From NCBI GenBank assembly GCA_903888345.1, contig CAISTG010000004.1, forward strand, positions 6,393 through 70,392: a stretch of 64,000 nt of DNA. The letters run 5' to 3'. A program made the translations under genes and the position numbers. This stretch comes from Candidatus Buchananbacteria bacterium. GTDB taxonomy: Bacteria; Patescibacteriota; Patescibacteriia; 2-01-FULL-39-33. A model generated the notes under the pieces. It had not been told where the DNA came from. It made no database searches and worked only from the letters and a program-made list of their open reading frames with translations. Shown here in pieces: positions 9,490-31,344 of this stretch (position 1 is the stretch's first letter; each line of letters starts with the position of its first letter).

Positions 9490-9963
9490 ATGAAATTCAA
9501 ATGGAATTATGCAGTGATCCCACTCAGCGTGATCGCTATTTCAGTGGCCGGCAGTTTAGTGACTGGCGGTAATATGAATTGGTATCGCGCTTTGAATTTG
9601 CCCCCAATCGCGCCACCAGGTGCCTTTATTGGCGCTGTCTGGACCGTAATCTTTATCCTGTCAGCTATTTCCATCTTATTATTTTGGAATAAAGAAAAAA
9701 ATAAAAAAGTAAAAAAGAATCTGGCGGAGTTATTTTTACTTAATGGGTTATTAAATTTATTATGGAGCATCGTCTTTTTCGGCTTGCATTTGATCGGTTG
9801 GTCGATTGTAGAAATGCTGGCTTTAAATATTACTAATCTCGTATTGATCGTCTGGCTCTGGCGCCGGAAAAAGCAGGCCGCCTCGATCCTCTTGTGGCCG
9901 TATTTTGCCTGGGTTAGTTTTGCGACCTACTTGGCCTATTCAGTGTGGTTACTAAATCGTTAG
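9490..9963 (+). CDS. tspO: TspO/MBR family tryptophan-rich sensory protein
   Basis: 157 aa with 5 TM segments and Trp-rich motifs (WYRALNLPPIAPPGAFIGAVWT and LWPYFAWVSFATYLAYSVWLLN) characteristic of TspO. Confidence 0.8.
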   Translation: MKFKWNYAVIPLSVIAISVAGSLVTGGNMNWYRALNLPPIAPPGAFIGAVWTVIFILSAISILLFWNKEKNKKVKKNLAELFLLNGLLNLLWSIVFFGLHLIGWSIVEMLALNITNLVLIVWLWRRKKQAASILLWPYFAWVSFATYLAYSVWLLNR

Positions 9964-10009
9964 GTCTTGAACAATATATCAGATTATGCTATGCTAATTT
10001 GATATCAAT

Positions 10010-11026: not shown

Positions 11027-11035
11027 AATTTACGA

Positions 11036-11068
11036 TAAAAAAATCCCGCTGCTATGGCGGGATTTTTT
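11036..11068. terminator. Bidirectional terminator between the CDF gene and the giant-protein gene
   Basis: ATCCCGC-tgctatg-GCGGGAT hairpin flanked by an A-run and a T-run. Confidence 0.75.
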
Positions 11069-11079
11069 AATGAGATTAT

Positions 11080-14000
11080 TTATCTGACTTTATCAGTCAA
11101 GATGGTGAAAATTGTTTTGATACCCTTGTCGACGTTTTTGATGTTTTTGAGACTAACGGATTCATCGCCGACATAACCCATCATTTCATTTTTGGCGGCA
11201 TTAAAGGAGAAGTGCATATCGCCTAATTGCTCGGCGGCTAGATGGTTGATTGGCGGTGGTACATCAAAATTTAATTCGCCACCCTTGTAAGAAATATTCT
11301 TGACAGCGAAATCGGCAGCGTCGGCAGCTGAGTATTCTTTGGCAACGCCGAAGTGACGGAAGATACTATCTAATGATTTGCCAATGCCCCGTTCGTTATG
11401 AGTATTGGCCATCAAGTCAGTTACTTTTTGCCATTCACTCATAGTTGCAGAGTCTTGGTAACTCTCGACATTAGTTGGTAGCGGGAAAATTTCAGAAGTT
11501 GGTGCAGTGACTTGTTCGACGCCGGTAGTAGCGAGTGTTTCGGAGGTACCGCCGGTCCCAGTCATTAAGTGCTCAGTTCTTAGCGGACCAACGGGTAAGT
11601 TATCGGGAATATGACCAGTTGCGTTGGCGGCGTGAATAGCTGCTTCCTGCGATTGTTGTAAGGCATGGGCGGCGGCATCGGCCGATAATCCTTGATTATG
11701 TAGTTGGCTCATCGTGTCATAGGCCTGTTGATTCAGATGGATGCCTTTGGGTAGATGTTCGACAACCTGTTGATTGAAAGCATTATTGGCTTCGATATGT
11801 TTAACCGCTTCGGCTGATAAATTACTGGCTTGCTCGGCGAAGGATTCCTTATTAAACATTCCACCGATTACTTCGTTGAAGTGATCGTTCTGGGAAATTT
11901 TTTCTAAGTCAGCAGGAGTTAAAATATCAATGTTAGCCCCTTTATGTAAGCCAAAGAGTTCGGGATTTTTAGCAATTTGATCTTTGATGTTATCAATGAT
12001 GTGAGTTTCTCGGCCGTCAGAAATACTGGGGGCATGTAAATGATTAATTAAGGTATCAACTTTTTTATCAATGAGGCCCCAGAGGTGAGGAGACTTGTCG
12101 CCATGAACGCCTCGCATTTCTTTAATGGCATCGGCAAGTGGATTAACTTTCGGAGCTTCGATAACCGCGGCAGCAGCACCCGTTGGGTGTGCTTGTTCTA
12201 CTGCGGCAGCAGCAACATTAGGACTGGTCGGAGTGCCGGCCTCAATGGGAGTCCCCCAATGTGAATGAATATAATCCATGGCCACATGACCAATGGTTGG
12301 TGCCAGCGCCGCCGCTAGACCAACGGTAATCATGCCACCATATTTGAGTAAATCCTTTTTTTGTTTATCTGAAAGAGCGCTATCTTTGAGGGTTTGTAAT
12401 TTAAGCGCTAGTGATTCTGGTGTGTCATTATCGGTGATTTTCATGGCTTCATAATCATTATTGCCCCACTTTTTTTCACCAATTGCTTTAAAAGCTCTTT
12501 CTGCTGTCCACATGGCCATCGGAACACGGGTAATCCACATTTCACGAGCCGCAATAGTTCCAAGGCCCAGTAAGACAGCCGTGAACGCTCGTTGATAATT
12601 ATTACCGCCACCCTTAACCATGAAGCCACTAATGGCTGATGTGACTTTTTGTGGAAACTTTAATATTCGACTATCAGATCGTTTAATTTTATCTGATAAT
12701 CCCTCGATTGCAGTCATTTCTTTCTCGAATGTTTTCTGATCAATTTTCTGAAGTGTTGATAATGATTTAATAATATCAGCACGTTTTTCTACTTCAACAT
12801 CAGCTAGTAATTCATCATTATCTTTAATAAAATCATTGAAGACAAATTTGCGATTGCCGTTGATACGTTTTTGTTGGGTGATGGCCGCTTCAGTAAAAAA
12901 TTGTTTTAAGAAAGCCTCCCGACTGTCGGGATCAGCTTCGAGGGCAGCTCGCATTTTGGCATACTTGGCATCAACTAGCTTCTTTTGTCTGCGGTCGGTG
13001 ACAAAATTATCAACCACTCTTGCTCCGGCGATTGTTGCCACGGTGCCGATACCGGCAGTGGCGCCAGTTAAGAGAGCGGCGGCCCCAACACCGGCACCAA
13101 TGCCAAGATAAACACCAAATTTTGTTAGTTTTGCTTTACGAGCCGCAGCAATGTTTGTGCTGGCCTCATCAGCGGTAGTGACATCAGCTAAACGCCCAGC
13201 ATTGATTTCAATCAAAGCTAGTTTTCTTAATCGTTCTTCCTGGTTACTGATTAAATCCTCGGCTTGTTCTAAGGTTAAGCCGGTTTCTTTGGCTAGTTGA
13301 TTGGCTAATAATTTTTGTTTAGTTTGGTGATCAAGGCTTTTGCTGTCGAGTAGGGTAGCTAATAGCTCTTTACGCAAAGCTTCTTGTGAAATTGTTTTCT
13401 TGCCTTCGGGCGAGAAAATATCTTTGATAGTTTGACTACCTTTCATGATAAGCTCTTCAACCTTACTGGATTTAACAAATTCAGCTTGAGCCGCAGCTGT
13501 AGCCTTAATTTCATCTTCAGTGAGAATACGTCCTTCTGTCCTGGATGTTTTCGCTAAAAGTTCTCTGAGTTGGGTTTGATTAGAGATGTTTCTAATGTTA
13601 GGTTGGTTCTCGGCTTTAGTGGCCTTTGGTTTACGTTTTGGTTTGGGGATTGGCGGGGGAGTGGCGTTATCTTCCACGATAGGCTCTGTTTCTTCTACGG
13701 CTGGGGCCGGTGTTTCTGCCGGTTCAACGGTTGACTCTACAGCTGGTTCATTTGCCTGCTGTTCTTCCCATTGATTATGCCAAACAAACATAATGCTATT
13801 ATATGTTTCATAATCCTCTTCAATTTCGATTTGCAAAACAGTTAAAATATCAAGAGTCTCGTTTGGTTTTAATTTTTCAGTGGCCTTTTTTAATCTTTCT
13901 TCAAATCTCGCTTTTATATCAAGCAACTTTTGTCGCATTCGTGGATTAATTAGATCTTTATTGTCTTCGTATAACTGATTAAATTCTCCAATCTTGGCGC

Positions 14001-15261
14001 TAACTATTGCCGCCCTTAATCTAATCTCTTCTTTTTCTCCAGCAGAGATGATTGTCTCGGGCGCTGGTGGAGGAGCAGTTTCGTGATTTGTTGGCGCAGT
14101 AGTCCCTGCGGCTTCGCGCTCAGCATCAGCGACCATTCTTTCAAAATCAATAGTTGGTGTTGTTGTTGGAACTTCGCCAATTGGTTTGGGATTGCGACTT
14201 TCCCAATTAAAAAGCTTTTCATCGACTACGTGATGGTGCCATTGTTGATAGCCCGGTTCCTGTTCTCCAACTGGGGCACTCTGGGTTAATTGTGAGATAT
14301 AAGCGCGGCGGTTATTTTCCCACTCAGTTAACGTCATTATTTTTTTCTCCGTCGTTTTTCTGGGTTCAGTTGGCGCTGGATTGGGTTGGTTTTCAGTTAG
14401 GGGAGGCTGTTGGTTAACTGGAGTTTCGACTACATGAATCTGTGTGTCAGTAGTTAATGGTGCAGTTGTCTCACTATTTAATAGTGGTTCTGGAAGGGGT
14501 GCTTCTGGTATTGGAGCGACGTTTGAATTTTCAAGTGGCGGCACTGGGGGTTTCGGCGCCTTGGCCGTCTCGATTATTTTTCTAACGATGCGCATTCTCT
14601 CTTCGCCTCGTTTTAAGATATCTTCAAATTCTCTAGCAGCATCAGCGGCAGTTACTTCACCTTGATTTTTACGATAAAGAATATCATAAGTGGTGCGTGT
14701 TTCATTAGCAACAAAATCTCGATAAGCATCACCTAATTTAAATTTTGGATCTACTTGAGATAAATCTCTTATTATACCTGCATAGGTTTTAAATTGGGTA
14801 TTTACTCTATTTTGCATGTCCGTCATTCTGGCAAGGTCAGCTTCAGATTCAACTGACATTGGGGGGCGCTCTGGGGTTGGTTCAATTGGTGCCGGATTGG
14901 ATTCAACTGAAGTGGTCACATCAGCTAAACGTTCTTCAGTGGTCGCGACTAAGCCTTGCACTTGCTCGGCATTTTTTTCGATTATAGCGGCATCGGCTGA
15001 TTCCTCGATCGGTTCAGTTGGCTGTAACTCTAAAACAGCGGCAGCGGCTGTTTCAGCTTGCTGCTGCTTTTCTTGGGCGGCTTTAATAACTTCAGCAACT
15101 GGCGCTGCTTCTTGCTCCCCGGACGCATTAGCGTTAGCTTCAGCTGCTTGACGTGCTTTAATTTCAGCTTGATTTTTTATCCATTCCTGCTGTGCCTTGA
15201 GTCCATCCTCAGGGCTTTCGCCTTTATCCTTAGTGAGTTTTTTTCTCTTGTTATCCGCCAT
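11080..15261 (-). CDS. Giant (1393 aa) hypothetical surface/membrane protein
   Basis: One uninterrupted ORF. Contains Pro/Ala/Glu-rich low-complexity stretches, coiled-coil segments and a glycine-zipper hydrophobic segment (GVYLGIGAGVGAAALLTGATAGIGTVATIAGA). No catalytic motif recognised. Native (AT-rich) codon usage. Confidence 0.7.
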   Translation of the reverse strand: MADNKRKKLTKDKGESPEDGLKAQQEWIKNQAEIKARQAAEANANASGEQEAAPVAEVIKAAQEKQQQAETAAAAVLELQPTEPIEESADAAIIEKNAEQVQGLVATTEERLADVTTSVESNPAPIEPTPERPPMSVESEADLARMTDMQNRVNTQFKTYAGIIRDLSQVDPKFKLGDAYRDFVANETRTTYDILYRKNQGEVTAADAAREFEDILKRGEERMRIVRKIIETAKAPKPPVPPLENSNVAPIPEAPLPEPLLNSETTAPLTTDTQIHVVETPVNQQPPLTENQPNPAPTEPRKTTEKKIMTLTEWENNRRAYISQLTQSAPVGEQEPGYQQWHHHVVDEKLFNWESRNPKPIGEVPTTTPTIDFERMVADAEREAAGTTAPTNHETAPPPAPETIISAGEKEEIRLRAAIVSAKIGEFNQLYEDNKDLINPRMRQKLLDIKARFEERLKKATEKLKPNETLDILTVLQIEIEEDYETYNSIMFVWHNQWEEQQANEPAVESTVEPAETPAPAVEETEPIVEDNATPPPIPKPKRKPKATKAENQPNIRNISNQTQLRELLAKTSRTEGRILTEDEIKATAAAQAEFVKSSKVEELIMKGSQTIKDIFSPEGKKTISQEALRKELLATLLDSKSLDHQTKQKLLANQLAKETGLTLEQAEDLISNQEERLRKLALIEINAGRLADVTTADEASTNIAAARKAKLTKFGVYLGIGAGVGAAALLTGATAGIGTVATIAGARVVDNFVTDRRQKKLVDAKYAKMRAALEADPDSREAFLKQFFTEAAITQQKRINGNRKFVFNDFIKDNDELLADVEVEKRADIIKSLSTLQKIDQKTFEKEMTAIEGLSDKIKRSDSRILKFPQKVTSAISGFMVKGGGNNYQRAFTAVLLGLGTIAAREMWITRVPMAMWTAERAFKAIGEKKWGNNDYEAMKITDNDTPESLALKLQTLKDSALSDKQKKDLLKYGGMITVGLAAALAPTIGHVAMDYIHSHWGTPIEAGTPTSPNVAAAAVEQAHPTGAAAAVIEAPKVNPLADAIKEMRGVHGDKSPHLWGLIDKKVDTLINHLHAPSISDGRETHIIDNIKDQIAKNPELFGLHKGANIDILTPADLEKISQNDHFNEVIGGMFNKESFAEQASNLSAEAVKHIEANNAFNQQVVEHLPKGIHLNQQAYDTMSQLHNQGLSADAAAHALQQSQEAAIHAANATGHIPDNLPVGPLRTEHLMTGTGGTSETLATTGVEQVTAPTSEIFPLPTNVESYQDSATMSEWQKVTDLMANTHNERGIGKSLDSIFRHFGVAKEYSAADAADFAVKNISYKGGELNFDVPPPINHLAAEQLGDMHFSFNAAKNEMMGYVGDESVSLKNIKNVDKGIKTIFTILTDKVR

Positions 15262-15460: not shown

Positions 15461-15775
15461 TTACTTTTGTGAAGCAGTAATAAAGTCGGTAGCAAATTCC
15501 GCTAATGCCGCCTGGATTTTTTGTTCGACGTTAGGAATTTTTTCTTGATAGAATTTTTCGACAGCGCGAAAATCCGGCTGTGGTTCAACCGACATTAACT
15601 CGCTGAATTCCGTGAGTGCGGCTTCGTCTAAGTTTTCCATTAAGGCAATACCTAAACGGCGATTAACCTGCTCTTTGAGCTTTTCGATATATTGCGCTTT
15701 GAAATCAGTTGGTAAATTAAGCTTAGATTCTCTCAGTAGATTTTCCACAAAGAGATTTAAAGGTTCTTGGTCCAT
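15461..15775 (-). CDS. Hypothetical protein (104 aa), operon with the 60-aa and 1393-aa genes
   Basis: Co-directional with 12-nt spacing. A TGTTATAATTAA-type -10 lies upstream on the minus strand at about 15803-15818. Confidence 0.5.
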   Translation of the reverse strand: MDQEPLNLFVENLLRESKLNLPTDFKAQYIEKLKEQVNRRLGIALMENLDEAALTEFSELMSVEPQPDFRAVEKFYQEKIPNVEQKIQAALAEFATDFITASQK

Positions 15776-17244: not shown

Positions 17245-18066
17245 ATGCCTGACAACGACACGAACGCCAACGTCAACGTTACCGAAACCGCAGCGACTCA
17301 GAAGGCTTCATGGAGCGAGCGGAGCAGGGCCTTTTTCCGCAAGATCAACCTGAGGAAGGTTGCTCCCATTGCCATGTTCGCCAGCTTCACCGTTTTGCTC
17401 CTCGTCGCTCTGATCCTGATCGGTATGCAGGCCGCCCAGGAAGTGAACTCAGTCAAAGCGACGGCCAATCAGGCGCTGTCTTTGGCCGCAACCACCTCCG
17501 ATCGGGTCGACACCGCCGAACAGGGGATTGCCCTACTCGCCGGAGAAAATCAGGCGCAGAATCAGCGCTTGACCGCCGTGGAACAAGCGACAGTGGTCGC
17601 GAGCGAAACTGCCACTGCTGCTGTCGCCAAAGCGGACACAGCCAATTCGCGGTTGAACGCGAAGAAGAAGGCCGATAACCAGTTGCACAAGCAGCATGTC
17701 GCCTACATCCGCGGTGCCAATCCTGACAGTCCGATTGCCAAGAAGAGCAACGCTGAAATCGAGGCGTTGCTCAATGATGGCATCTGGAACATCGAAGGCG
17801 ATATTCAGACCGAGTTTGATCGGCTGATCGCTCTCGCTGCTGCCCAGGCCAAGCAGACGGCCGACAGTGTCGTGGAGACTGCCAAGCTGACCGCCACCAA
17901 GTTGGAAGCGGTTGACGTGACGGCGACAAAGGCGCTTGCTGCCGGCGACACCGCAGTCTCGGGGATCAAAGTGATCGCCGATCAGCCTAACAAGCTTTTT
18001 GGCAAGTCGGTCAACGGCGACTCCAAGAAGACTCTCCAAGAGCTGGTGGCCACTTACTCCAAGTAA
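17245..18066 (+). CDS. Membrane-anchored Ala/Thr-rich coiled-coil protein (GC-rich cassette I3)
   Basis: 273 aa with one TM helix (MFASFTVLLLVALILIGM) followed by an Ala-rich helical ectodomain. About 55% GC. The antisense ORFs at 17310..17678 and 17533..18039 are GC artefacts. Confidence 0.65.
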   Translation: MPDNDTNANVNVTETAATQKASWSERSRAFFRKINLRKVAPIAMFASFTVLLLVALILIGMQAAQEVNSVKATANQALSLAATTSDRVDTAEQGIALLAGENQAQNQRLTAVEQATVVASETATAAVAKADTANSRLNAKKKADNQLHKQHVAYIRGANPDSPIAKKSNAEIEALLNDGIWNIEGDIQTEFDRLIALAAAQAKQTADSVVETAKLTATKLEAVDVTATKALAAGDTAVSGIKVIADQPNKLFGKSVNGDSKKTLQELVATYSK

Positions 18067-18104: not shown

Positions 18105-18137
18105 GGACGGAGCAACAATTGCTCCGTCTTTTCTTTT
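18105..18137 (+). terminator. Intrinsic terminator of cassette I3
   Basis: GACGGAGCA-acaa-TTGCTCCGTC hairpin followed by TTTTCTTTTG. Confidence 0.8.
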
Positions 18138-18240
18138 GTCTAAAAATATCTATTGTGGATAATCAGTACTAATTTATTAGCTTGTAACTCCGAATTATGT
18201 TATAATTAAATTAACTTTGTTAAGTAAGTGGCAACTTAAA

Positions 18241-19635
18241 ATGAACAAAATCAATAAAACTTCGCTCAAGGTCCTCAACTTGTTTTTGGTAGTAGTTTTT
18301 TTAGTGGTGTCTGGCTTTGGTTGCAGCTTGCAATCAGCCCAACAAACCGCTGCGATTGCGCCGATAACTCTAACTTATTGGCGTGTTTGGGATGATCAAG
18401 ATGCTTTCGATCAAGTGATTCGCGATTATCAATTAATCCATCCTAACGTTACAATTAATTACCGCAAATTTCGATATGAAGAATTTGAGGCGGAATTATT
18501 GAACGCTTTAGCCGAAGATCGCGGTCCGGATATTTTTTCTATCCCGGAAGCCTTATTAAAAAAATATCAATCGAAACTCACACCAATGCCCGCTCAGTTA
18601 AAGCTTGGTTATATTGTTGAAAAAAGTTATTTTGGCATCAAAAAAGAACAGGTAGTTGAAATTCGTACCGATAAAACACCAACCTTGCGGGAGATTAAAG
18701 ATCAATATGCGGATACGGTTTATGCCGATGCTGTTATTGATAATCAGGTTTATGGTTTGCCGCTGAGTTTGGATACCTTAGTCATGTATTACAATAAGGA
18801 CATTCTTAATCAGGCGGGGATTGCGCAGTTACCGATCGATTGGAAAACTTTTCAGGAGGACGTCGTTAAGATGACTAAGTTCGAAACGCAGAATGTTATT
18901 TTACAATCCGGCACAGCTTTGGGCACTGGTTATAATGTCGAACGAATGTTTGATATTTTATCGGTGTTAATGATGCAAAATGGCGCCATCATGGCTAATG
19001 CACAGGGTTATCCGACGTTTTTTTCGAATATTAAAGTTGGTGGCCAAACCATTAATCCGGGCTTAACAGCACTCCAGTTTTATGCTGATTTCGCCTTGCC
19101 ACTGAAACAAGTTTATAGCTGGAACAATACCATGGACAATTCTTTGTCGGCTTTTATGGCGGGCAAAGTTGGTTTTTTCTTTGGTTATAATTATCATTTA
19201 GCGCAAATTCGATCGCAATCCCGCGTTAATTTCGGTATTGCTCCATTACCACAGATTGCCGGTAATCCAGTAAAAAATTATGCCAACTATTGGTTGGAAG
19301 TGGTGTCAAAAAAATCAAAGTATCAGAACGAGGCCTGGGATTTTATTTTATTTGCTAATAAACCGGCCGAAGTTAAGAAGTATTTAGCTGAGACTAATCG
19401 ACCGACCGCACAAAAGGCGTTGATTGCCTCGCAACAAGATAGTGAAGACTTGCACGCTTCCGTTGGCCAGATTTTAACGGCTGCTACTTGGTATCGGGGA
19501 CAGGACGTTAATGCGGCTGAGTTAGCCTTTAAAGAAATGGCTGAAAGATTTTTGTTAGTCACTATTAATAGTGAAATCAGTAACGTAATGTCAGTCGCGA
19601 CTCAAAAAGTAACGCAAACGATTAATGCCCAGTAG
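18241..19635 (+). CDS. ABC transporter substrate-binding lipoprotein (family 1, sugar/oligosaccharide type)
   Basis: Signal peptide with a lipobox (VVSGFGCS). About 440-aa periplasmic-binding-protein fold. The start was set at the ATG at 18241. The listed ORF start at 18217 is a TTG only 11 nt downstream of the TGTTATAATTAA -10 at 18192-18206, and the ATG at 18241 is 35 nt downstream of it. Confidence 0.7.
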   Translation: MNKINKTSLKVLNLFLVVVFLVVSGFGCSLQSAQQTAAIAPITLTYWRVWDDQDAFDQVIRDYQLIHPNVTINYRKFRYEEFEAELLNALAEDRGPDIFSIPEALLKKYQSKLTPMPAQLKLGYIVEKSYFGIKKEQVVEIRTDKTPTLREIKDQYADTVYADAVIDNQVYGLPLSLDTLVMYYNKDILNQAGIAQLPIDWKTFQEDVVKMTKFETQNVILQSGTALGTGYNVERMFDILSVLMMQNGAIMANAQGYPTFFSNIKVGGQTINPGLTALQFYADFALPLKQVYSWNNTMDNSLSAFMAGKVGFFFGYNYHLAQIRSQSRVNFGIAPLPQIAGNPVKNYANYWLEVVSKKSKYQNEAWDFILFANKPAEVKKYLAETNRPTAQKALIASQQDSEDLHASVGQILTAATWYRGQDVNAAELAFKEMAERFLLVTINSEISNVMSVATQKVTQTINAQ

Positions 19636-19685: not shown

Positions 19686-20207
19686 GTGAAAAACCAAAAA
19701 CTTCGAGCGATTGTGATGATGGTAGTTATTGTGAGCGGGCTAGCAGTAGCCGGTAATGCTTTAGCATTGGGCTACGCTTTAAAAGATGTGCCTTGCGCTC
19801 AAATTGGAACGACTGGTGCCGGTGGTTATGAAATGGCGCCGAGTTGTGGGCCCTGCGATCTAATCAGAGTCGGAGTCAATTTGACTAACATGATTATGGC
19901 AGTTAGTGGTAGTATTGCCTTACTGATGTTCGTGTTGGCGGGCGTGATGATGATTGCCTCTTTTGTTAATCCGAAATGGGTGACTACGGCTAAGGATACC
20001 GTTAAATATACTATTATTGGATTATTTCTGATTTTTAGTTCTTATACGATTGTTAATTTCGTCATCTCGGCGCTTTATGGCGGTGTCGGAGATATGGGCG
20101 TCTTACAGGGAAATTATGCCGCGATTACTGGTAAAGCCAATTGGGGCGTTTGTAGTAGTGCGAATTTAGGTACTGGTGCAGCCGGAACTCCGGCAGCGAC
20201 CAAGTAA
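19686..20207 (+). CDS. Secreted VirB2/TrbC-like pilin-domain protein, paralog 1
   Basis: Signal peptide, a Cys-containing ectodomain (CAQIGTTGAGGYEMAPSCGPCDL) and the family C-terminus of two hydrophobic helices separated by a short basic loop (AKDTVKYTIIGLFLIFSSYTIVNFVISAL). The start is GTG at 19686, and an alternative ATG lies at 19716. Confidence 0.6.
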   Translation: MKNQKLRAIVMMVVIVSGLAVAGNALALGYALKDVPCAQIGTTGAGGYEMAPSCGPCDLIRVGVNLTNMIMAVSGSIALLMFVLAGVMMIASFVNPKWVTTAKDTVKYTIIGLFLIFSSYTIVNFVISALYGGVGDMGVLQGNYAAITGKANWGVCSSANLGTGAAGTPAATK

Positions 20208-20221
20208 TTCAATTTGAAGAT

Positions 20222-20740
20222 ATGAAACTAAAATATTTTAACTTATCTATTGTATTGATGCTGTTATTTCTTGTTGTGGGTGTTTTTTCATTTATTAATA
20301 TTGCTACTGTTCAAGCAGAAACTTTAGAACAATGTTTTGATCGTTGTGTTAAAGAAAAAGGTGAGGCGACGCAAGCCGTAAATACTGCCGCGGAAGTAAA
20401 ATATCAAACCTGTATCACTGGTTGTCGAAATCCCGTGGTTGCCCCCGCTGCTTCTCAAGGTTATACTGCAGCACTAGTTGATCCTCTGGGCCTGAATAAA
20501 GCACAACCGATTGCTGATTTGGCGAAGCGTTTGATTATGACTACTCTGGGGTTAGTTGGTGTTCTGGCATTACTCGCGTTTATTTATGGCGGCGTCCTAT
20601 ATATGCTCGTTGGCGTTAAGGCTGACAATGTTAAGAAAGGTAAAGAAGTTATGAAGTGGGCAGTGGCTGGATTATTTTTAATTTTTTCCGCTTATGCTAT
20701 TTTGAATTTCTTGTTTACTACCGTGCTGGGCGTTAAATAA
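20222..20740 (+). CDS. Secreted VirB2/TrbC-like pilin-domain protein, paralog 2
   Basis: Signal peptide, 4-Cys ectodomain and a conserved C-terminus (KKGKEVMKWAVAGLFLIFSAYAILNFLFTTVLGVK). Confidence 0.65.
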   Translation: MKLKYFNLSIVLMLLFLVVGVFSFINIATVQAETLEQCFDRCVKEKGEATQAVNTAAEVKYQTCITGCRNPVVAPAASQGYTAALVDPLGLNKAQPIADLAKRLIMTTLGLVGVLALLAFIYGGVLYMLVGVKADNVKKGKEVMKWAVAGLFLIFSAYAILNFLFTTVLGVK

Positions 20741-20773
20741 TATCGGTCGCTATAATTTTATCAATTGCGCTTT

Positions 20774-21721
20774 ATGGAGAAAATTAAATTAAATATTTTA
20801 TTGGGTCTAATAGTCACTTGCGGCTTGTTGGCTATTGGGGGCGAGGTTAAAGCGGCTTGTATGTGTACTGAGGCGGGAGGGGTTTGTATGCATCATCCTT
20901 ACGTAGCGGCGCAATGTAATAGTTGTTTAAAAGCTAATGCCGCGAATTGCGCAGGTGAAATAGCGCCTGCATGTGACGAAGATAGTGGATTATGCCCTGG
21001 TTCCTTTCCGGCAGCGCAACAATGTCCTACTGTTTGTGACTACCCTGGAGGCAGCGTGCCTGACGGAACTGGTAAAGTTATAATTTGTCAGCCCACTGCC
21101 GCCTGTAAACCCACCGGAGTTGGGGTTCCAAAAACTCCGGCTAAACCAGCAACAACAAAGCCAGCAGCTAATAATTGTGATGTTTGTTATGATACTTATG
21201 GTGCTTGTATGCAGGATTCAAATAGTGCTGAATGCTTGTCTTGCGAGGCTGGTTGTTCTGCTGCAGCTACTACGGCTAATAGTTGCGATGTTTGTTATGG
21301 TGCCGGGGGAGTTTGTCAGACGGATTCTGATAGCGCTGAATGTGCGGCTTGTGCCAGTGGTTGTTCTGCGGGTGCGTCAGCGGGTGTCACACCAAGCGCT
21401 TCGACTCAGGGCAACATTGCTAACCCTAATGCTAATTCCGGTAGCGGTGTCGCCATCACCGATCCTTTAAATATAAATTCCAAAACACCGATTGCTGATC
21501 TAGCCAAAAAATTGATCAACATCATTCTTGGCTTGACTGGCGTCATAGCTTTGTTATCATTCATTTATGGTGGTGTTTTGTATATGCTCTCAGGTGTTAG
21601 TCCTGATAATGTCAAAAAAGGCAAAGAGGTTATGAAGTGGGCGGTTGCCGGTTTATTTATTATTTTTTCCAGTTATGCAATATTAAATTTCTTATTGACG
21701 ACGGTGCTGGGAGTAAAATAA
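20774..21721 (+). CDS. Secreted VirB2/TrbC-like pilin-domain protein with Cys-rich tandem-repeat ectodomain, paralog 3
   Basis: C-terminus is identical in pattern to paralog 2. The ectodomain contains two 36-aa repeats (NxCDVCY...C..DS.SAEC..C..GCSA) plus further Cys pairs. The start was set at the ATG at 20774, and the listed ORF begins with TTG at 20765. Confidence 0.65.
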   Translation: MEKIKLNILLGLIVTCGLLAIGGEVKAACMCTEAGGVCMHHPYVAAQCNSCLKANAANCAGEIAPACDEDSGLCPGSFPAAQQCPTVCDYPGGSVPDGTGKVIICQPTAACKPTGVGVPKTPAKPATTKPAANNCDVCYDTYGACMQDSNSAECLSCEAGCSAAATTANSCDVCYGAGGVCQTDSDSAECAACASGCSAGASAGVTPSASTQGNIANPNANSGSGVAITDPLNINSKTPIADLAKKLINIILGLTGVIALLSFIYGGVLYMLSGVSPDNVKKGKEVMKWAVAGLFIIFSSYAILNFLLTTVLGVK

Positions 21722-21803
21722 GTTTATTAATAAAAAATATTGTTGCTAATATAACAATATCCAAATCTCCTCTTGTAGGGGAACCAGGAAAGGGGGTGAC
21801 AAC

Positions 21804-22193
21804 ATGAAAAAAACAACTAAATACGCTTGCGCTAGTTTATTAACTTTGGGAACTGTAGCTTTAGTCGGTACTCCAGCTTTGGCGGCCGTCATCAGCGGTG
21901 TCCCAACTTTATCATCGATTAATTCTGCCAATGGTAGTGCCGTTTTCGGCTCTGCTACTTTGAGCGAAATTATTTCCGGTGTTATCAGCGTTATTCTAGC
22001 TTTCTTAGGCGTTATCACTGTCTTAATCATCCTGTGGGGAGGTTTCATTTGGATGACTGCTGGTGGCGAACCGGACAAGGTAGAAAAAGCCAAAAAAATG
22101 ATTTATTCCGGTATTATCGGCTTAATTATCATTTTTGCCGCCTACGCTATCGCTAATTTCGTAATGAGTGCTATCCAGGGAGTAACTAAATAG
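21804..22193 (+). CDS. Secreted VirB2/TrbC-like pilin-domain protein, paralog 4
   Basis: Signal peptide followed by WGGFIWMTAGGEPDKVEKAKKMIYSGIIGLIIIFAAYAIANFV. Confidence 0.65.
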   Translation: MKKTTKYACASLLTLGTVALVGTPALAAVISGVPTLSSINSANGSAVFGSATLSEIISGVISVILAFLGVITVLIILWGGFIWMTAGGEPDKVEKAKKMIYSGIIGLIIIFAAYAIANFVMSAIQGVTK

Positions 22194-22263
22194 TTATTTT
22201 ATTTCTTCTCTCGGGGATTGATCATGGTGTTCAATCCCCGGTTCGAGAAGAGCAATCAATATT

Positions 22264-22698
22264 ATGTCCATGAATAAAAAATACTTATCGTTAGTCATTG
22301 TTTCTTTGATTTTTTGTCCGTTGGCTGTTTCGGCTACCGGTGTGCTTACCGGCTTAAATAATACTGCCGCGGGAACTGGCTTGGATGCCAATAAAGACTT
22401 AATTACTTTTGTCGGAAAAATCATCGGTGTTATTTTGGGTCTCTTAGGCGCGGTGCTAGTTGTTATTCTGATTTATGCTGGAATTATGTGGGGTTTCTTA
22501 GCGCGTGGTGATAATACTCAAATTAAAAAAGCTAAAGAAATGATTATTAATGCAGTGATCGGACTGGCGATTGTCTTAGCCGCTTATGCGATTACCACTT
22601 TCGTGTTTACTAGTCTCAACAACGCTTTAGTTAATAATGTTAAGACGGCTAATCCGAACGTTAACTCGAATAATCCGGGTCAGTATTCGGCACAATAA
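22264..22698 (+). CDS. Secreted VirB2/TrbC-like pilin-domain protein, paralog 5
   Basis: Signal peptide followed by IYAGIMWGFLARGDNTQIKKAKEMIINAVIGLAIVLAAYAITTFV. Confidence 0.65.
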   Translation: MSMNKKYLSLVIVSLIFCPLAVSATGVLTGLNNTAAGTGLDANKDLITFVGKIIGVILGLLGAVLVVILIYAGIMWGFLARGDNTQIKKAKEMIINAVIGLAIVLAAYAITTFVFTSLNNALVNNVKTANPNVNSNNPGQYSAQ

Positions 22699-22740
22699 TT
22701 TAAAAATTAATTTATATTAAATAAAATAACAAATAAAATT

Positions 22741-23169
22741 ATGAACAGATCAATTGCCAAACTTGGCAAACAAGCAGCCGCCCTCGCGGCAACAATCGGT
22801 GCCTGCGCACTGCCGATGATGGCAGCGGCAGAAATTAAGTATTCCACTAACCTTAATAGTTTGGCTGGAGCTGCTGGCATTAGTACTGGTGGTAACAACA
22901 GTTTAGTACAGATTATCGGCGCGTTAATTGGTACCGTTTTGGTGCTACTCGGCGTGTTGTTGGTGGTGTTTATCTTATGGGCTGGTTTCATTTGGATGAC
23001 CTCTCAAGGTGAAGCAGGAAAGACCAAGAAAGCTAAGGATATGATTTATCAATCAATCATTGGTTTACTGATTATTTTTGCTGCTTATGCTATTACCAAT
23101 TTCGTTTTCTCGGCTTTGACTCATGTAGTTAATACCGGTTCAGCTTATACTGGTACGGGACAACAATAA
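22741..23169 (+). CDS. Secreted VirB2/TrbC-like pilin-domain protein, paralog 6
   Basis: Signal peptide followed by WAGFIWMTSQGEAGKTKKAKDMIYQSIIGLLIIFAAYAITNFV. Confidence 0.65.
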   Translation: MNRSIAKLGKQAAALAATIGACALPMMAAAEIKYSTNLNSLAGAAGISTGGNNSLVQIIGALIGTVLVLLGVLLVVFILWAGFIWMTSQGEAGKTKKAKDMIYQSIIGLLIIFAAYAITNFVFSALTHVVNTGSAYTGTGQQ

Positions 23170-23182
23170 ACTTCCTAAAAAT

Positions 23183-23217
23183 TAAAAGACGTCAGCGGCA
23201 AGCTGGCGTCTTTTTTT
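23183..23217. terminator. Bidirectional terminator between the pilin-like array and pgi/pmi
   Basis: AGACGTCAGC-ggcaa-GCTGGCGTCT hairpin flanked by an A-run and a T-run. Confidence 0.75.
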
Positions 23218-23224
23218 GAGTAAA

Positions 23225-24292
23225 TTATTTTTCTAATTCTTTTTTGAAGAAGTTCACCCAAGGAATTTTGGCAGGATTAACTTGGTTGAGCATGGCTAAA
23301 TAAAAACTGAGCCAGCCGCCATAAGCTAAGACTTCTAGGGTCTGAGTGAGGCTATCAGTGGCGGCGGTTTTGATCAAGTAGCTCTTAATGCCTTGGCGGT
23401 CTAAGACTTTTTTGGTGGCAGCAAAACGTTTGATAATTCTCGGGTCGTAAGTAGCGGCAACAAGAAAAATAAAGCAGGTATCTCGGGTAATTTTTTTGGG
23501 GTTAGCAAGAGCTTCAAGAAAATGATGATTAAGCTCCGGGATTTTATAAGGGCTCGCCAATTGTTTAGCACTCTCATTGATTTGGTTGGCTAAAATATGG
23601 GCGTTAGCTGATAGATTTTCTGCACCTAAAAGATAAATATTTTGACCATAAACTTCTTGAGCGAGTAATTTAGAAAAATTATGTTTAGTTGGTATGGTTG
23701 GCAATAATTCATAACCGAGATTGACCAGGGTCGTCGCTGTAGTTAGGAGTTGTTTCTCGGTGAGCTTAATAAATTTTAGTTGGCTAAAAATATAGAGAAC
23801 AGTACCGAGTTGTGAGCCAACATCATAACGTGGTTGGCCAGAAGGATTAAGACTGGGGTTTAATTTAAAGAAAATCGATTTTGATTTTTTGGCGAGTCGT
23901 TCTAATTGGCCGCCACCAGAGATAACAATAATTTTAGCCTTTAGTTTGTTGGCCTGGGTTAAACACGATAACATTTCTTCGGTGTTACCAGAGTAACTGT
24001 CAACAATCACTAAACTGTCCTGGCCAACAAAAGCTGGCAGATTATAATTACGCACCAGTACGAAGGGCACCTTAAGCTGAGAACCAAAAGCACGCTTGAT
24101 TAATTCGGAGGCGAGATTGGAGCCACCCATACCGCAAAAAACGATATTTTTGGCTTTAGCCAAAGTTGGCGGTAATTTGATTTTCTTGCTTTCATTGTAA
24201 GAATTAATCAATTGTTTCGGCAGATTAGCAATCGAGGCGGCGACATTATTCTGATCTAATTTTTTGATGGCAGCTTGATTATCGAGATTCAT
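23225..24292 (-). CDS. Bifunctional phosphoglucose/phosphomannose isomerase (SIS domain, archaeal type)
   Basis: 355 aa with SIS-domain motifs (VFCGMGGSNLASEL and VISGGGQ). Confidence 0.7.
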   Translation of the reverse strand: MNLDNQAAIKKLDQNNVAASIANLPKQLINSYNESKKIKLPPTLAKAKNIVFCGMGGSNLASELIKRAFGSQLKVPFVLVRNYNLPAFVGQDSLVIVDSYSGNTEEMLSCLTQANKLKAKIIVISGGGQLERLAKKSKSIFFKLNPSLNPSGQPRYDVGSQLGTVLYIFSQLKFIKLTEKQLLTTATTLVNLGYELLPTIPTKHNFSKLLAQEVYGQNIYLLGAENLSANAHILANQINESAKQLASPYKIPELNHHFLEALANPKKITRDTCFIFLVAATYDPRIIKRFAATKKVLDRQGIKSYLIKTAATDSLTQTLEVLAYGGWLSFYLAMLNQVNPAKIPWVNFFKKELEK

Positions 24293-28099: not shown

Positions 28100-28690
28100 T
28101 TAAAGGTGCTGCTCAATAATTGCTAACACAGCGGCAATTTTTTCATTCAAGTCGGAAATGCTAGTTATTACTTGTTGCTGGGGATGAACCGACCAAGCGG
28201 CTTTAATTTTATGTTCGATTGTTTGAGCTTCAACTAAAGACTCAAAACGCTCAGCATTATTGCCTCGGCCGTAAAGGTGCGGTGCGGTTACAGCCAATGA
28301 CTCCAGATGAATAACTGTCGTGTAGTTGGCGATAGCGTCCGCTTCATTAATATTATTACGGCGATAGAATTCAGCGGCGCCACCCGGAGTGTAGGCCGCT
28401 CCGTCTAAAATTCCGCGGTCGCAGACTAGCAAGGTTGCTCCTCGTTGCTCGGCCATCAATTGATACGAGTGTTCAAGGGAGGTTTGTAGGACAGTAACAG
28501 AGGCTTGAAAATCATGTTGCCAATCCTCACTCCAGGCTAGGTCACGACCCGGAACCGGGAAACCACCCGAGAGTAAAATTGTTGCTGCTTCTGGTACGAC
28601 TAATACTTGGCAGGGAAAATTCAGTTTAATAGCTTCTAGTGCGGAAGTCTTTCCGCCACAAGGGCCGCCGGTTAAAACGATTTTTTTCAT
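28100..28690 (-). CDS. P-loop NTPase, AAA_28/NadR-kinase-like (cassette I4, gene 6)
   Basis: Walker A is VLTGGPCGGKTS and Walker B is LLVCDRG. 196 aa with an AAAGGAG SD. GC-rich codons. Confidence 0.6.
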   Translation of the reverse strand: MKKIVLTGGPCGGKTSALEAIKLNFPCQVLVVPEAATILLSGGFPVPGRDLAWSEDWQHDFQASVTVLQTSLEHSYQLMAEQRGATLLVCDRGILDGAAYTPGGAAEFYRRNNINEADAIANYTTVIHLESLAVTAPHLYGRGNNAERFESLVEAQTIEHKIKAAWSVHPQQQVITSISDLNEKIAAVLAIIEQHL

Positions 28691-28824
28691 GATCGTGCTC
28701 CTTTCGTTGGGATTTGAGTAAGAAGTTAAAGAGCAGTTTAGTGACTTGCTCAGGTCAGTTAGAATTAACTTAGGAGATCAAGGACTTTCTTCCAGTTCTT
28801 GCCCTTCAGTAGGCCAGTGCGCGA

Positions 28825-29454
28825 TTACCAATTGCCCGGGTATTTCTCTTTGCCCTCAGGCGTCGTCAGGTACTTCTCATCAATCACCTCCAGTATCTGC
28901 TTATCGACGTTAACTAGACCGATGCGATTGGTGCTGGTGCACAACACCTTAACCTCATCGCCGCCAACACCGCGGAAGCAGTCGAAGGCCGCCGATGCCG
29001 GGTGCTGGTGGTGATCAGTGTCCGTCACCACCGCCACCCTTTTGACACCAACCTTGATTGCCAGTAGTGCAATGATCGTGCCCAGCGGCATCTCCTCCTT
29101 AGCATACTTAACTTTGTTGGCCTGTGCCTGCCCGGATGGCGGAACCATCAAGTCAGTCAGGACGACGTCGAAGTTGGGGACGATTGTGAAGTCTTTGGTG
29201 GCCTGATTTTTGGCTAGCTGGTAAGCTGCCTTTTTGTTTGCCTCCTCTTCGGTAGCGCGCCAGGGATTGAAATCACCGAACAGCTCTTTCATCTTGGCGT
29301 CAATGGCGTCAAAGTCAGTCACCGGCAGTAGTGCTGCCTGCGCTTCGTCATAGGTGCCGACGACCGTCAAGTTGTGATCCTTGAGAGTAACTTCGGCAGC
29401 GGTACGATGAGCGGCACTGTCATCAAACACGAGGATGTTGAGTTTCGTTGTCAT
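28825..29454 (-). CDS. CheY/flavodoxin-like alpha/beta-fold protein, divergent REC-like (cassette I4, gene 5)
   Basis: Has ILVFDD (acidic pair), a possible phospho-acceptor context (DFDAIDAKM or FDVVLTDLMVP) and a later RVAVVTDTDHHQH strand. The long inserts are not canonical for a receiver domain. AAAGGAAG SD. Confidence 0.35.
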   Translation of the reverse strand: MTTKLNILVFDDSAAHRTAAEVTLKDHNLTVVGTYDEAQAALLPVTDFDAIDAKMKELFGDFNPWRATEEEANKKAAYQLAKNQATKDFTIVPNFDVVLTDLMVPPSGQAQANKVKYAKEEMPLGTIIALLAIKVGVKRVAVVTDTDHHQHPASAAFDCFRGVGGDEVKVLCTSTNRIGLVNVDKQILEVIDEKYLTTPEGKEKYPGNW

Positions 29455-29513
29455 GATGTTCTTCCTTTTTGCTTCGGTGGTTGGTTGTTTCTCGTCGACA
29501 AGTTGGAATAATA

Positions 29514-29753
29514 CTAGATGCGGCGCGGGTCTTTCAAATCTCTGATTTCACTGGCATCAGGAACGTGCTTCTTTCGTTTCACTTCCAATTCTTTCATGCT
29601 ATTAACAGTTCTTTGAAAGTTTCGGGCCATTGTTTCCAAATCACCTAAGTGGGTCGACATCCACAAGTCATAATGCGCGCGACAAATGTCGCCGTTGCCT
29701 TGGCAAGTGCAATTGTCTTGTGCGATTCCATCCCAGGTATGCGATTTCGCCAT
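29514..29753 (-). CDS. Small CTC-motif Cys protein, paralog 3 (cassette I4, gene 4)
   Basis: The start was set at the MAKSHTWDG methionine, 7 nt after an AAGGAG SD, and the longer listed ORF overlaps the upstream gene. N-terminal motif NCTCQGNGDICRAH. Confidence 0.5.
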   Translation of the reverse strand: MAKSHTWDGIAQDNCTCQGNGDICRAHYDLWMSTHLGDLETMARNFQRTVNSMKELEVKRKKHVPDASEIRDLKDPRRI

Positions 29754-29764
29754 GATGTTCTCCT

Positions 29765-30280
29765 TTAGAGGTCGAGTAGAATTCGCTCTAGTAAGCCGCC
29801 ACACTCGTGACTCAGCTTAGGATCATGTGGTAATTGTTCCAGTAGTTCTTGCAGTAATTTTCGTTCGCTCGAACTGGTGAAATTGCGATCGCGTTTGATC
29901 GCACCAACAATCACCGACCGTACAAACAGTCGTAGATCGGCATCGCGGCGTATTGCTTCGGCCAGAATCAGTGGATTCAGTTTGGCGACTTCGGCAAAGC
30001 CAACCGGCAGATCACGACCCATAAAACTCGAGCGCAATCCCAGACCGTAGTTCAGGTTACTCAAAACGCACTCGTCAATTCCGCCGGCAAAGGGTCCATC
30101 AAAGATCTGCGGCGGAATAAAACCGCCATAGCCATCCTGATGCAATTTTTGCTCTTTAGTGTAATACATAAACACCTGAAATTCATCCGAACTTTTAAAT
30201 TTGCTGCGGATCAGCTCCTGAAATTTTTTCAGCACTTCAGCAATCATTTTTTCTTTGATTGTCGTCAGAAATTCTTCCAT
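29765..30280 (-). CDS. Hypothetical protein, 171 aa (cassette I4, gene 3)
   Basis: AAGGAG SD 7 nt upstream. No recognisable motif. Confidence 0.5.
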   Translation of the reverse strand: MEEFLTTIKEKMIAEVLKKFQELIRSKFKSSDEFQVFMYYTKEQKLHQDGYGGFIPPQIFDGPFAGGIDECVLSNLNYGLGLRSSFMGRDLPVGFAEVAKLNPLILAEAIRRDADLRLFVRSVIVGAIKRDRNFTSSSERKLLQELLEQLPHDPKLSHECGGLLERILLDL

Positions 30281-30403
30281 TTCGCATCTCCTTTCTCGGT
30301 TAATTGTAAGGTGCAGTACTCGATTTCGCTGTTTTCAGCTCATCAGTCCAGGCACACACCTGGAAATCGTCGAGCAGTTTTAGAACTTGCTCAGGTTTAA
30401 TTC

Positions 30404-30631
30404 TCAACTTAGCCCCATTACCTCAAGCAGCTCCTTTTCTGGTAAGTTGCGGCAAGACTCACACCAAGTTTCGATCGATTGACGCGTGGTCGATACTCCT
30501 TGACCGCAGCCACAACAAGGCTTGATAACTGGCTCGTTGGCTAGCACATCGATTTTCTTTAACCTTTCTGATGTGCAGTTCAGGCACGCAACTTCGATAT
30601 CATCGCCGCAAGTGCAAGTATGTTTCTTCAT
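30404..30631 (-). CDS. Small CTC-motif Cys-rich protein, paralog 2 (cassette I4, gene 2)
   Basis: 75 aa with 9 Cys, N-terminal HTCTCGDDIEVACLNC plus CCGCG and CESC. Its start overlaps the upstream gene's stop (ATGA). Confidence 0.55.
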   Translation of the reverse strand: MKKHTCTCGDDIEVACLNCTSERLKKIDVLANEPVIKPCCGCGQGVSTTRQSIETWCESCRNLPEKELLEVMGLS

Positions 30632-30876
30632 GGTGCTTCTCCTTGTTTTTGTTTGTTTTGCTCAATCTGATCTAGTCTTTCCTGTAGGGCTGCCTGATTG
30701 TGCTGTTTAGCAGTTTCATGAAGTGTGATTACCGCTTTAAAGAGGCGCTGTTCTTCAATGACGGCATCCCAAAGTTTGCTTTGAAGTCTCGCCTTTTGTT
30801 CGCGGAAGCATTTCGGGCAGCAGTCGTGCGGGTATTTGCAGGTGCAGTCGGCATTTATCGTGGTTTCGTTACGCAT
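30628..30876 (-). CDS. Small CTC-motif Cys protein, paralog 1 (cassette I4, gene 1)
   Basis: 82 aa with DCTCKYPHDCCPKC followed by a Q/E-rich helix. Confidence 0.55.
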   Translation of the reverse strand: MRNETTINADCTCKYPHDCCPKCFREQKARLQSKLWDAVIEEQRLFKAVITLHETAKQHNQAALQERLDQIEQNKQKQGEAP

Positions 30877-30920
30877 GCTAGTCCTCGCTTTCTTGGTTGG
30901 GTTGTAAGGTTCTAAGGTTC

Positions 30921-30958
30921 AAAAAAACCGGTTGCTTTTTTAGCAATCGGTTTTTTTG
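30921..30958 (-). terminator. Leader hairpin/attenuator between the I4 promoter and its first gene
   Basis: ACCGATTGC-taaaaaa-GCAACCGGT followed by TTTTTTT on the minus strand, and symmetric on the plus strand. Confidence 0.45.
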
Positions 30959-31036
30959 AACCACCAAACAAAAGTTGGTTTGATTTGTATTTGGTTTTGT
31001 TGGTTTTGTTTAGTCATAGTTTTTCTATCTATAAGT

Positions 31037-31065
31037 AGTGTATCATAGCTAAAATATTTTGTCAA
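31037..31065 (-). promoter_or_regulatory. Sigma70-like promoter (TTGACA-17-TACACT) for the I4 operon
   Basis: Reverse complement reads cTTGACAaaatattttagctatgaTACACT. Confidence 0.5.
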
Positions 31066-31344
31066 GTATTACGACACTTAATAAATCTTTTGCGATAAAT
31101 TTAGCCAAAATATTGATTAAAATCACTTAATAATTTGATATAAATTTACAATAATGTCTAAATAATTTTGAATATTATGGGAAATTGATAACAAGAGTGT
31201 ATAACTAGTTAATTTTTAATTAATATTTGTCATAAATACCGACATTTAAAATACTAAAATATCGATTTGAGTAAATTTAGCCGTTCAAAATATCTATATT
31301 GTGTGATATACTATAATTAAGTAAGAGAAATAATTTACTATTGT

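Follow-up and report, generated by a model that had tools for sequence, protein, structure and literature searches.

The six-gene array and its proteins

The window analyzed here is a 64-kb stretch (64,000 nucleotides) of a Candidatus Buchananbacteria genome (assembly GCA_903888345.1, contig CAISTG010000004.1, positions 6,393 to 70,392). Between positions 19686 and 23169, its open reading frame (ORF) listing contains six adjacent plus-strand genes, p1 to p6, that encode secreted proteins with a two-helix pilin module and lie downstream of a gene for a putative solute-binding lipoprotein (SBP). This six-gene array of pilin modules is real and far beyond chance, and a hidden Markov model built from the six module cores found no further copy in the window. 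Table 1 collects coordinates and protein layouts; related loci and proteins are cited by L and P numbers, respectively.

Hydropathy analysis delimits exactly three hydrophobic stretches in each of the six proteins. The first is an N-terminal signal peptide with a small-x-small end (ALA↓L, VQA↓E, VKA↓A, ALA↓A, VSA↓T, and AAA↓E in p1 to p6). The second and third are transmembrane-grade, with peak 19-residue Kyte-Doolittle means of 1.9 to 3.1, and enclose a Lys-rich loop. Signal peptides and topology were read from hydropathy and the translations, with cleavage sites assigned by eye. In the AlphaFold2 model of p4, residues 53-85 and 90-128 form a helical hairpin, with a predicted local distance difference test (pLDDT) score above 90. 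The order of signal peptide, helix, basic loop, and helix predicts that both termini lie outside, so that an extension at either end would be exposed at the surface.

A preliminary description of this DNA had recognized six consecutive same-strand genes, each with a signal peptide, as well as exposed extensions. The gene count and leaders are borne out by the ORF listing and hydropathy, and the exposure agrees with the predicted topology. It had also given all six proteins one module with a WGGFIWMT-type motif. Two helices and a basic loop are indeed present throughout; the motifs as described, WGGFIWMT.. and IIGLLIIFAAYAI.., are confined to p4 and p6, and the others read YGGVLYML, YAGIMWGF, or LAGVMMIA. 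The core alignment of p1 to p6 has just 8 invariant columns. Pairwise core identity is 25 to 59%, except for p2 and p3 at 83%, and full-length identity of the paralogs to p1 is 21 to 30%. Tandem Repeats Finder detected no DNA-level tandem repeats in the array, the repeat in p3 being seen at the protein level only.

Hypervariable, partly Cys-rich ectodomains, which had been proposed for the array at large, are a property of p1 to p3, with 4, 4, and 24 Cys residues in the mature proteins; p4 to p6 carry N-terminal tails of only 21 to 25 residues and have no mature Cys. The Cys residues of p1 stand at positions 37, 54, and 57 (C54-x-x-C57) and at 156 in the C-terminal tail. The p2 ectodomain has the pattern CX3C...CX3C, and that of p3 includes a six-Cys unit of about 36 residues that occurs twice in the translation. 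The ectodomains had also been called mutually unrelated, which does not hold for p2 and p3: besides their 83% identical cores, they have a juxtamembrane DPL..PIADLAK motif in common. Ectodomain identities between paralogs from global alignment were set aside, since the very unequal lengths inflate them. The p3 ORF opens at TTG 20765 (20765-21721, 318 aa), yet ATG 20774 is the likelier start codon, since P0001, a public protein (100% identical, 315 aa), begins there.

Table 1. Coordinates and properties of the SBP-pilin locus, its surroundings, and related features (window positions unless a locus is named)
Feature	Position	Strand	Description
Terminator-like hairpin	18105-18129	+	11-bp stem followed by a T run; ends the preceding gene
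Promoter candidate	18136-18163	+	Sigma-70-like, TTGTCT-16-GATAAT; 54 nt upstream of the SBP start
SBP	18217-19635	+	472 aa; directly upstream of p1; lipoprotein-type N terminus ..VSGFGC
p1	19686-20207	+	173 aa; PF18895 37 bits; signal peptide 1-27; N-terminal tail 28-58; core 59-134; C-terminal tail of 39 residues
p2	20222-20740	+	172 aa; PF18895 34.5 bits; signal peptide 1-32; ectodomain of 64 residues; C-terminal core 97-172
p3	20774-21721	+	315 aa from ATG 20774; PF18895 42.4 bits; ectodomain of ~210 residues with Pro/Thr/Lys-rich linker; core C-terminal
p4	21804-22193	+	129 aa, minimal pilin; PF18895 41.4 bits; signal peptide 1-27; tail of 25 residues; core 53-128
p5	22264-22698	+	144 aa; PF18895 32.6 bits; signal peptide 1-24; tail of 21 residues; core 46-122; Asn-rich C-terminal tail of 22 residues
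p6	22741-23169	+	142 aa; PF18895 35 bits; signal peptide 1-30; tail of 24 residues; core 55-130; C-terminal tail of 12 residues
Probable bidirectional intrinsic terminator	23184-23214	.	13-bp hairpin, A run pairing with T run
PGI gene	23225-24292	-	Convergent with p6
Ala/Glu/Lys-rich protein gene	11080-15261	-	1393 aa; no Cys; no Pfam match
ORF noted alongside the 1393-aa gene	15461-15775	-
Ala/Thr-rich protein gene	17245-18066	+	273 aa; one N-terminal transmembrane segment; no Pfam match
Raised-G+C block	28200-31340		G+C up to 56%; minus-strand hypothetical genes
Zinc-ribbon-like ORFs	30404-30631; 30628-30876		Small, Cys-rich; among the minus-strand genes of the raised-G+C block
Low-G+C stretch	30950-31340		22% G+C
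23S rRNA-intervening-sequence protein gene	42177-42533	+	PF05635, 94 bits
Immunoglobulin-type protein gene	49463-50938	+	491 aa; two domains (Ig_3, Ig_2, I-set; E down to 3e-17)
Second-layout loci, examples	L058:6010-12075; L088:5992-13272		SBP and one p1-position pilin, insert, further pilins
Giant fusion genes	L020:7670-16903; L021:7172-9856 and 9869-15055; L006:6759-9878		Similar in L023 and L025-L028
Polypilin P0111			820 aa, 8 modules
Polypilin P0113			1775 aa, 14 modules
Polypilin P0119 (MDP3997021.1)			364 aa, 4 modules

Pilin family membership

All six proteins pass the gathering score (26.6 bits) of the Pfam family PF18895 (T4SS_pilin), with 32.6 to 42.4 bits and E values from 8e-8 to 7e-11, and their assignment to this Patescibacterial VirB2-like pilin family is solid. 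Against NF045849, the pilin-like family of integrative and conjugative elements (ICEs) of Mycoplasma (cutoff, 40 bits), p6 scores 40.4 bits, p4 39.4, and the other four 11.9 to 27.3. An hhalign comparison of a profile of 94 p4 homologs with VirB2 of Agrobacterium tumefaciens, taken from a Ti plasmid record, gave an E value of 1.9e-4 and a probability of 48% over 59 colinear columns, which take in the tail, helix 1, the W-M motif, the loop, and helix 2. Precomputed Pfam matches of many p4 homologs include the TrbC/VIRB2 family PF04956, and some sources label these proteins "pilin" or "VirB2 component." A homolog search with p1 yielded only two matches under an E-value limit of 1e-5.

A type IV pilin identity was rejected. 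The signal peptides have classical n-h-c structure and AXA-type sites, there is no G-F-x-x-x-E motif, and type IV pilin families are absent from the Pfam output for p1 to p6. The earlier assignment of the module to the VirB2/TrbC type rather than to the N-methyl-Phe pilins thus stands.

Position-specific orthology of the paralogs

The nearest relatives, at 45 to 54% pilin identity, are found in metagenome-assembled genomes (MAGs) of Buchananbacteria and the ABY1 class, and the nearest loci in MAGs of Buchananbacteria and other Patescibacteria. A neighbor-joining tree groups the pilin cores by array position, with p1 in one clade, p2 and p3 together in another, p4 in a third, and the remainder in p5/p6 clades. 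Because each position forms its own ortholog clade, the paralogs are ancient and position-specific. The window copies of p2 and p3 are sisters in the tree, and theirs is, as judged from the cores, the only recent duplication in the array. Array order and orthogroups are kept across genera. Cores are 38 to 79% identical between orthologs, versus 5 to 42% for the exposed N-terminal tails. The most conserved orthogroup is that of p4, whose core is 71 to 79% identical to the orthologs in L005 and L009, which makes p4 a candidate major subunit. This pattern fits a distinct conserved role for each paralog and not recently diversifying, interchangeable variants; tandem diversification for antigenic variation, as first proposed for the array, is therefore not what the clades indicate.

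Conservation extends to the Cys residues at position 1. In contiguous arrays (L002-L024), the p1 orthologs have a Cys...CxxC arrangement before helix 1 and a Cys in a W-G-x-C context after helix 2, and all four residues are predicted to face outward. If a disulfide joined the tails at the two ends of the protein, it would imitate the way in which VirB2/TrbC are cyclized head to tail.

Linkage to a solute-binding lipoprotein gene

The SBP matches SBP_bac_8 and SBP_bac_1 (E ~1e-22), its relatives among PDB sequences are sugar-binding proteins, and the ..GFGC motif is kept in its orthologs, all of which is in keeping with a carbohydrate-type solute-binding lipoprotein. The linkage of its gene to the pilins was followed in both directions. 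A pilin locus scan was seeded with p6 and p4, the six-core alignment being too diverged, and an SBP ortholog (42 to 72% identity) lies immediately upstream of a 4- to 8-gene pilin array in 18 of the 34 loci that it yielded. The reciprocal scan started from the SBP in metagenome contigs; of the 59 loci that could be assessed, 57 carry a pilin-module ORF as the next gene downstream. The SBP stop codon and the pilin start codon overlap or abut in 9 genome loci, and the genes that flank the SBP-array block differ between loci. No mention of the SBP-pilin linkage was found in the literature searched, including the papers on Patescibacterial arrays; the preliminary description had likewise passed over the SBP gene as part of the unit.

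Signals around the block are compatible with a single operon. The upstream terminator-like hairpin likely marks its 5' boundary, and the sigma-70-like promoter candidate is a consensus match only, promoter-like sites in the region not being enriched over shuffled sequences. The downstream hairpin, with an RNA fold of -20 kcal/mol and a z-score of -4.4 against shuffles, probably serves both p6 and the convergent PGI gene. Between the two terminators there is no terminator-like site with a stem above 5 bp, and intergenic gaps measure 14 to 82 nt. With terminators on both flanks, none inside, and short gaps, one transcription unit of SBP and six pilins is the simplest reading, and the SBP gene is probably cotranscribed with the array. 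No internal switch, inverted repeats, or silent cassettes were seen in the array.

A second layout (L051-L097) has the SBP gene and one p1-position pilin, then a conserved insert of 2 to 5 kb, and after it three to six more pilins. Since only p1 stays with the SBP there, no pairing is conserved more tightly than that of the SBP with the pilin at position 1. The insert carries genes for a RodZ-like helix-turn-helix protein (~220 aa), a methyltransferase-like protein (~183 aa), a 127-aa membrane protein, and a YraN-like protein (~119 aa), and some loci add a gene of ~240 aa and, on the opposite strand, a membrane-protein gene of ~530 aa; these are assignments by N-terminal sequence reading only.

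A scan of about 50 ORFs of the window, including every ORF of at least 400 aa, found no ABC permease (BPD_transp_1) or ABC ATPase (ABC_tran). Neither occurs next to the SBP gene in related loci with upstream genes checked. The genes of ~290 aa upstream of the SBP in some loci were considered and rejected as ABC permeases, as they belong to NTP_transferase, TerC, and DUF3800.

Polypilins and adhesin-type fusions

A profile of the six cores matches 64,687 cluster representatives at E values of 1e-3 or below. The top matches (P0111-P0257) are what we call polypilins: single polypeptides with one leader and 2 to 14 tandem pilin modules, joined by linkers of 3 to 60 and occasionally up to ~220 residues. 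As no leader-like segments lie between the modules, these proteins are not read-through artifacts of gene arrays. The literature searched did not yield a description of such fusions. A different kind of fusion is found in Falkowbacteria-type loci, where proteins of 900 to 3000 aa carry an N-terminal pilin module followed by Big_5, TIG, Laminin_G_3, and VWA domains. The genes for these giant proteins are often paired and lie among housekeeping genes, namely those for RuvB, QueA, signal peptidase I, HisRS, and RelA. Other relatives (P0008, P0009) have Cys-rich C-terminal domains.

The fusions are consistent with both termini pointing outward, and they suggest that array members act jointly in one assembly able to display adhesive domains. 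The adhesin function first proposed for the array is thus plausible, because relatives fuse the module to adhesin-type domains; this applies to display and not to the variation with which it had been coupled.

Genomic surroundings

The array has as neighbors, besides the SBP and PGI genes, those of a DHH phosphoesterase, a sulfatase-family protein, and ClpP, and the scanned ORFs of the window are housekeeping or envelope genes; there are no rRNA genes in the window. The large 1393-aa protein encoded upstream was considered as an extended VirB6 and rejected, since it lacks transmembrane segments as well as a signal peptide and does not resemble the VirB6-like protein of L029, a Saccharibacteria locus. 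Its gene adjoins a DUF5663 gene, and weaker homologs occupy the same upstream position in L002, L003, L009, and L015. The gene of the 273-aa protein lies just upstream of the SBP operon and is followed by a strong terminator, and a weak homolog occurs at the same position in L003.

Farther away, the 491-aa protein has two immunoglobulin-type domains of mostly eukaryotic families (Ig_3, Ig_2, I-set), which is unusual in a bacterial surface protein. The block of raised G+C, compared with ~41% elsewhere, contains the two zinc-ribbon-like ORFs and is followed by the low-G+C stretch. It is not unique to this genome, because some of its genes have homologs in L008 and L009. The 23S rRNA-intervening-sequence protein gene stands amid housekeeping genes.

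Discussion

We favor, at a probability of roughly 0.55, the reading that this locus is a chromosomal operon of an ABY1-class Patescibacterium that encodes an SBP and six co-assembling pilin subunits of a type IV secretion system (T4SS) surface structure. The proteins p1 to p6 would enter the membrane via Sec and have their leaders cut by signal peptidase I, leaving a two-helix hairpin with its basic loop in the cytoplasm and both termini outward. The paralogs would then be distinct, position-specific subunits that assemble together rather than alternative variants, with p4 to p6 as short-tailed core subunits and p1 to p3 as decorated ones that would expose small disulfide-bonded domains at the surface. 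By analogy with the array of Southlakia epibionticum, the assembly most likely serves as the surface fibre, or as the conduit, of a Patescibacterial T4SS of the MPF-FATA type, whose ATPase and channel genes would lie elsewhere in the genome. The SBP lipoprotein, most tightly linked to p1, may be an accessory of this structure, likely binding glycans at the host interface.

The locus adds no new kind of system, since Patescibacterial VirB2-like arrays are already published, a precedent that the preliminary description had missed. A survey counted 441 such arrays of 2 to 11 genes each in 383 assemblies, tandem or separated by one non-pilin gene and with a mean paralog identity of ~25%, and found a pilin gene near virB4 in 1135 of 1948 assemblies, a typical but not obligatory arrangement (Quinonero-Coronel et al. 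2025, PMC12102498). Buchananbacteria belong to the GTDB class ABY1, and the Buchananbacteria rows read from the published table are marked VirB4-positive. In S. epibionticum ML1, a series of essential pilin genes lies in the T4SS cluster SEML1_0006-0019 (Wang et al. 2023, PMC10633639); a later review describes six structurally conserved, sequence-divergent pilins in this array. The present array resembles these in PF18895 membership, in the Sec leader, two helices, and basic loop, in the tandem same-strand arrangement of diverged paralogs (21 to 30% identity), and in its chromosomal location in a monoderm epibiont lineage. It differs in its coupling to an SBP gene and in the Cys-rich ectodomains of three members. 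The ML1 array and that of L029 lie beside VirB4, PrgI, and VirB6-like genes, with L029 also encoding a lysozyme/CHAP protein next to the same-module array and its VirB4-like ATPase; ours, within the 64-kb window, stands apart from T4SS genes.

Several observations weigh against the favored reading. As the preliminary description had noted for the T4SS ATPases, neither VirB4 nor VirD4, PrgI, or other T4SS families were found among the ORFs scanned in the window, and in the ABY1-type loci with flanking genes examined, the 10 kb around the array likewise contain none. Dependence on a T4SS rests here on analogy with another class. No pilus has so far been seen for any Patescibacterial T4SS. Of the two Pfam families against which a search had been suggested, PF18895 is passed by all six proteins and PF04956 (gathering score, 27.9 bits) by none, four scoring 18.1 to 23.2 bits and p4 and p6 remaining unmatched; canonical TrbC/VirB2 membership is accordingly not established at the Pfam threshold. 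The p4-family profile retrieved no solved pilin from PDB sequences, and Foldseek of the p4 model against the PDB returned generic helical hairpins, the best being ATP synthase subunit c at an E value of 0.6; both searches are non-discriminating because the hairpin fold is so simple. The tree comprises 92 pilin cores from SBP-linked arrays over 76 columns, built by neighbor joining with no bootstrap. For p1, the AlphaFold2 model falls below a pLDDT of 50 in the Cys-bearing tails and is too uncertain for Cys pairing. Finally, a VirB2 filament extruded in the classical manner is difficult to square with polypilin linkers of 3 to 10 residues, and likewise with the module-bearing proteins of 900 to 3000 aa.

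Part of this evidence speaks for the main rival, a membrane-resident hetero-oligomer whose modules would pack as a bundle or ring in the cytoplasmic membrane and anchor the Cys-rich heads, the giant adhesins, and the SBP lipoprotein independently of any T4SS. The tightly linked modules behind a single signal peptide, the N-terminal position of the module in adhesin-like proteins, the lack of T4SS genes near the array in the ABY1 loci examined, the housekeeping surroundings, and the non-significant match to the c-ring subunit of ATP synthase would all suit such an assembly. We nevertheless find it doubtful, as the module appears to be a homolog of the VirB2/TrbC pilins and in Saccharibacteria sits inside a T4SS cluster, where it is essential along with the T4SS genes. 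Moreover, VirB2-family termini lie on the exterior of the F-pilus and the T-pilus, and short external linkers thus do not strictly preclude a filament.

Antigenic or host-range variation, in which interchangeable major pilins with different exposed surfaces are used alternatively, was also proposed as a source of versatility in the survey of Patescibacterial arrays, where precedents in Bartonella and Anaplasma are cited (PMC12102498). The faster divergence of exposed tails than of cores, and the recent duplicates p2 and p3 with their different Cys-rich heads, speak in its favor. However, array order and orthogroups are conserved across genera, the genes appear to be transcribed as a single unit in which neither an internal switch nor inverted repeats nor silent cassettes were seen, and polypeptides with several modules imply simultaneous use. 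We regard variation as improbable: positional orthology and the fusion proteins favor co-assembly, and the position-specific orthology found here departs from the variability stressed by the survey. Least probable is an uptake device in which the orphan SBP would hand carbohydrate to a pilin-module channel replacing the ABC permease, or to a T4SS importer. In its favor, SBP-pilin adjacency is near-obligate in SBP-seeded loci, stop and start codons overlap, the window scan revealed neither an ABC permease nor an ABC ATPase, and an import role of the Patescibacterial T4SS has been speculated on in the literature. Against it, genes for an ABC permease may be located in another part of the genome, the second layout keeps only p1 with the SBP and the other pilins 2 to 5 kb away, and transporters built from VirB2-like hairpins are not known.

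Co-assembly of distinct subunits in a T4SS surface structure can also be set against better-known systems. VirB2 of the Agrobacterium Ti plasmid, TrbC of RP4, and TraA of F are, like the present proteins, small pro-pilins with a cleaved leader, a two-helix hairpin, outside termini, and a basic loop facing the cytoplasm or the lumen, and profile similarity to them is weak but colinear. In contrast to these canonical conjugative pilins, leaders here measure 24 to 32 residues instead of ~47 to 51, multiple paralogs replace one major pilin, there is no adjacent virB/trb operon, some members have large N-terminal extensions or C-terminal tails, and the host is monoderm. The Mbov_0395 family (NF045849) of Mycoplasma ICEs likewise belongs to a conjugation system of the MPF-FATA type in a monoderm and has the same kind of two-helix module, 80 residues long, but as a single gene inside the ICE, whereas here a six-gene chromosomal array has no ICE genes nearby. 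As an analogy only, minor-pilin and pseudopilin operons such as GspG-H-I-J-K consist of ordered, diverged paralogs with a common hydrophobic module and their own orthogroups, each presumably with a distinct place in one fibre. The family is unrelated, and the array proteins have no class III leader and no Glu5, with a two-helix hairpin in place of the single N-terminal helix.

A bolder proposal is that the SBP, the p1-type pilin, and four or five further paralogs form one hetero-oligomeric envelope structure of fixed composition, which couples host-glycan capture to a T4SS or acts without one. It might take the form of a ring, a bundle, or a mixed fibre, and would be fused into polypilin chains in other lineages. 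We give this proposal a low probability; if true, it would amount to an apparatus for nutrient acquisition or host docking such as has been described for no T4SS.

Much of bacterial diversity belongs to the Patescibacteria, which live attached to host cells; in the only species among them that can be manipulated genetically, both the T4SS and the pilin array are essential. The locus described here sharpens the question of what such arrays build: in ABY1 the pilin paralogs are ancient, ordered, and position-specific, their modules are fused in some organisms, and an SBP gene stands upstream. Ancient ordered paralogs, fusions, and SBP pairing together argue for one composite structure over interchangeable variants, and they name the SBP as a concrete candidate partner for host contact or nutrient capture. 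The observations on linkage, orthology, and fusion are worth a dedicated comparative study.

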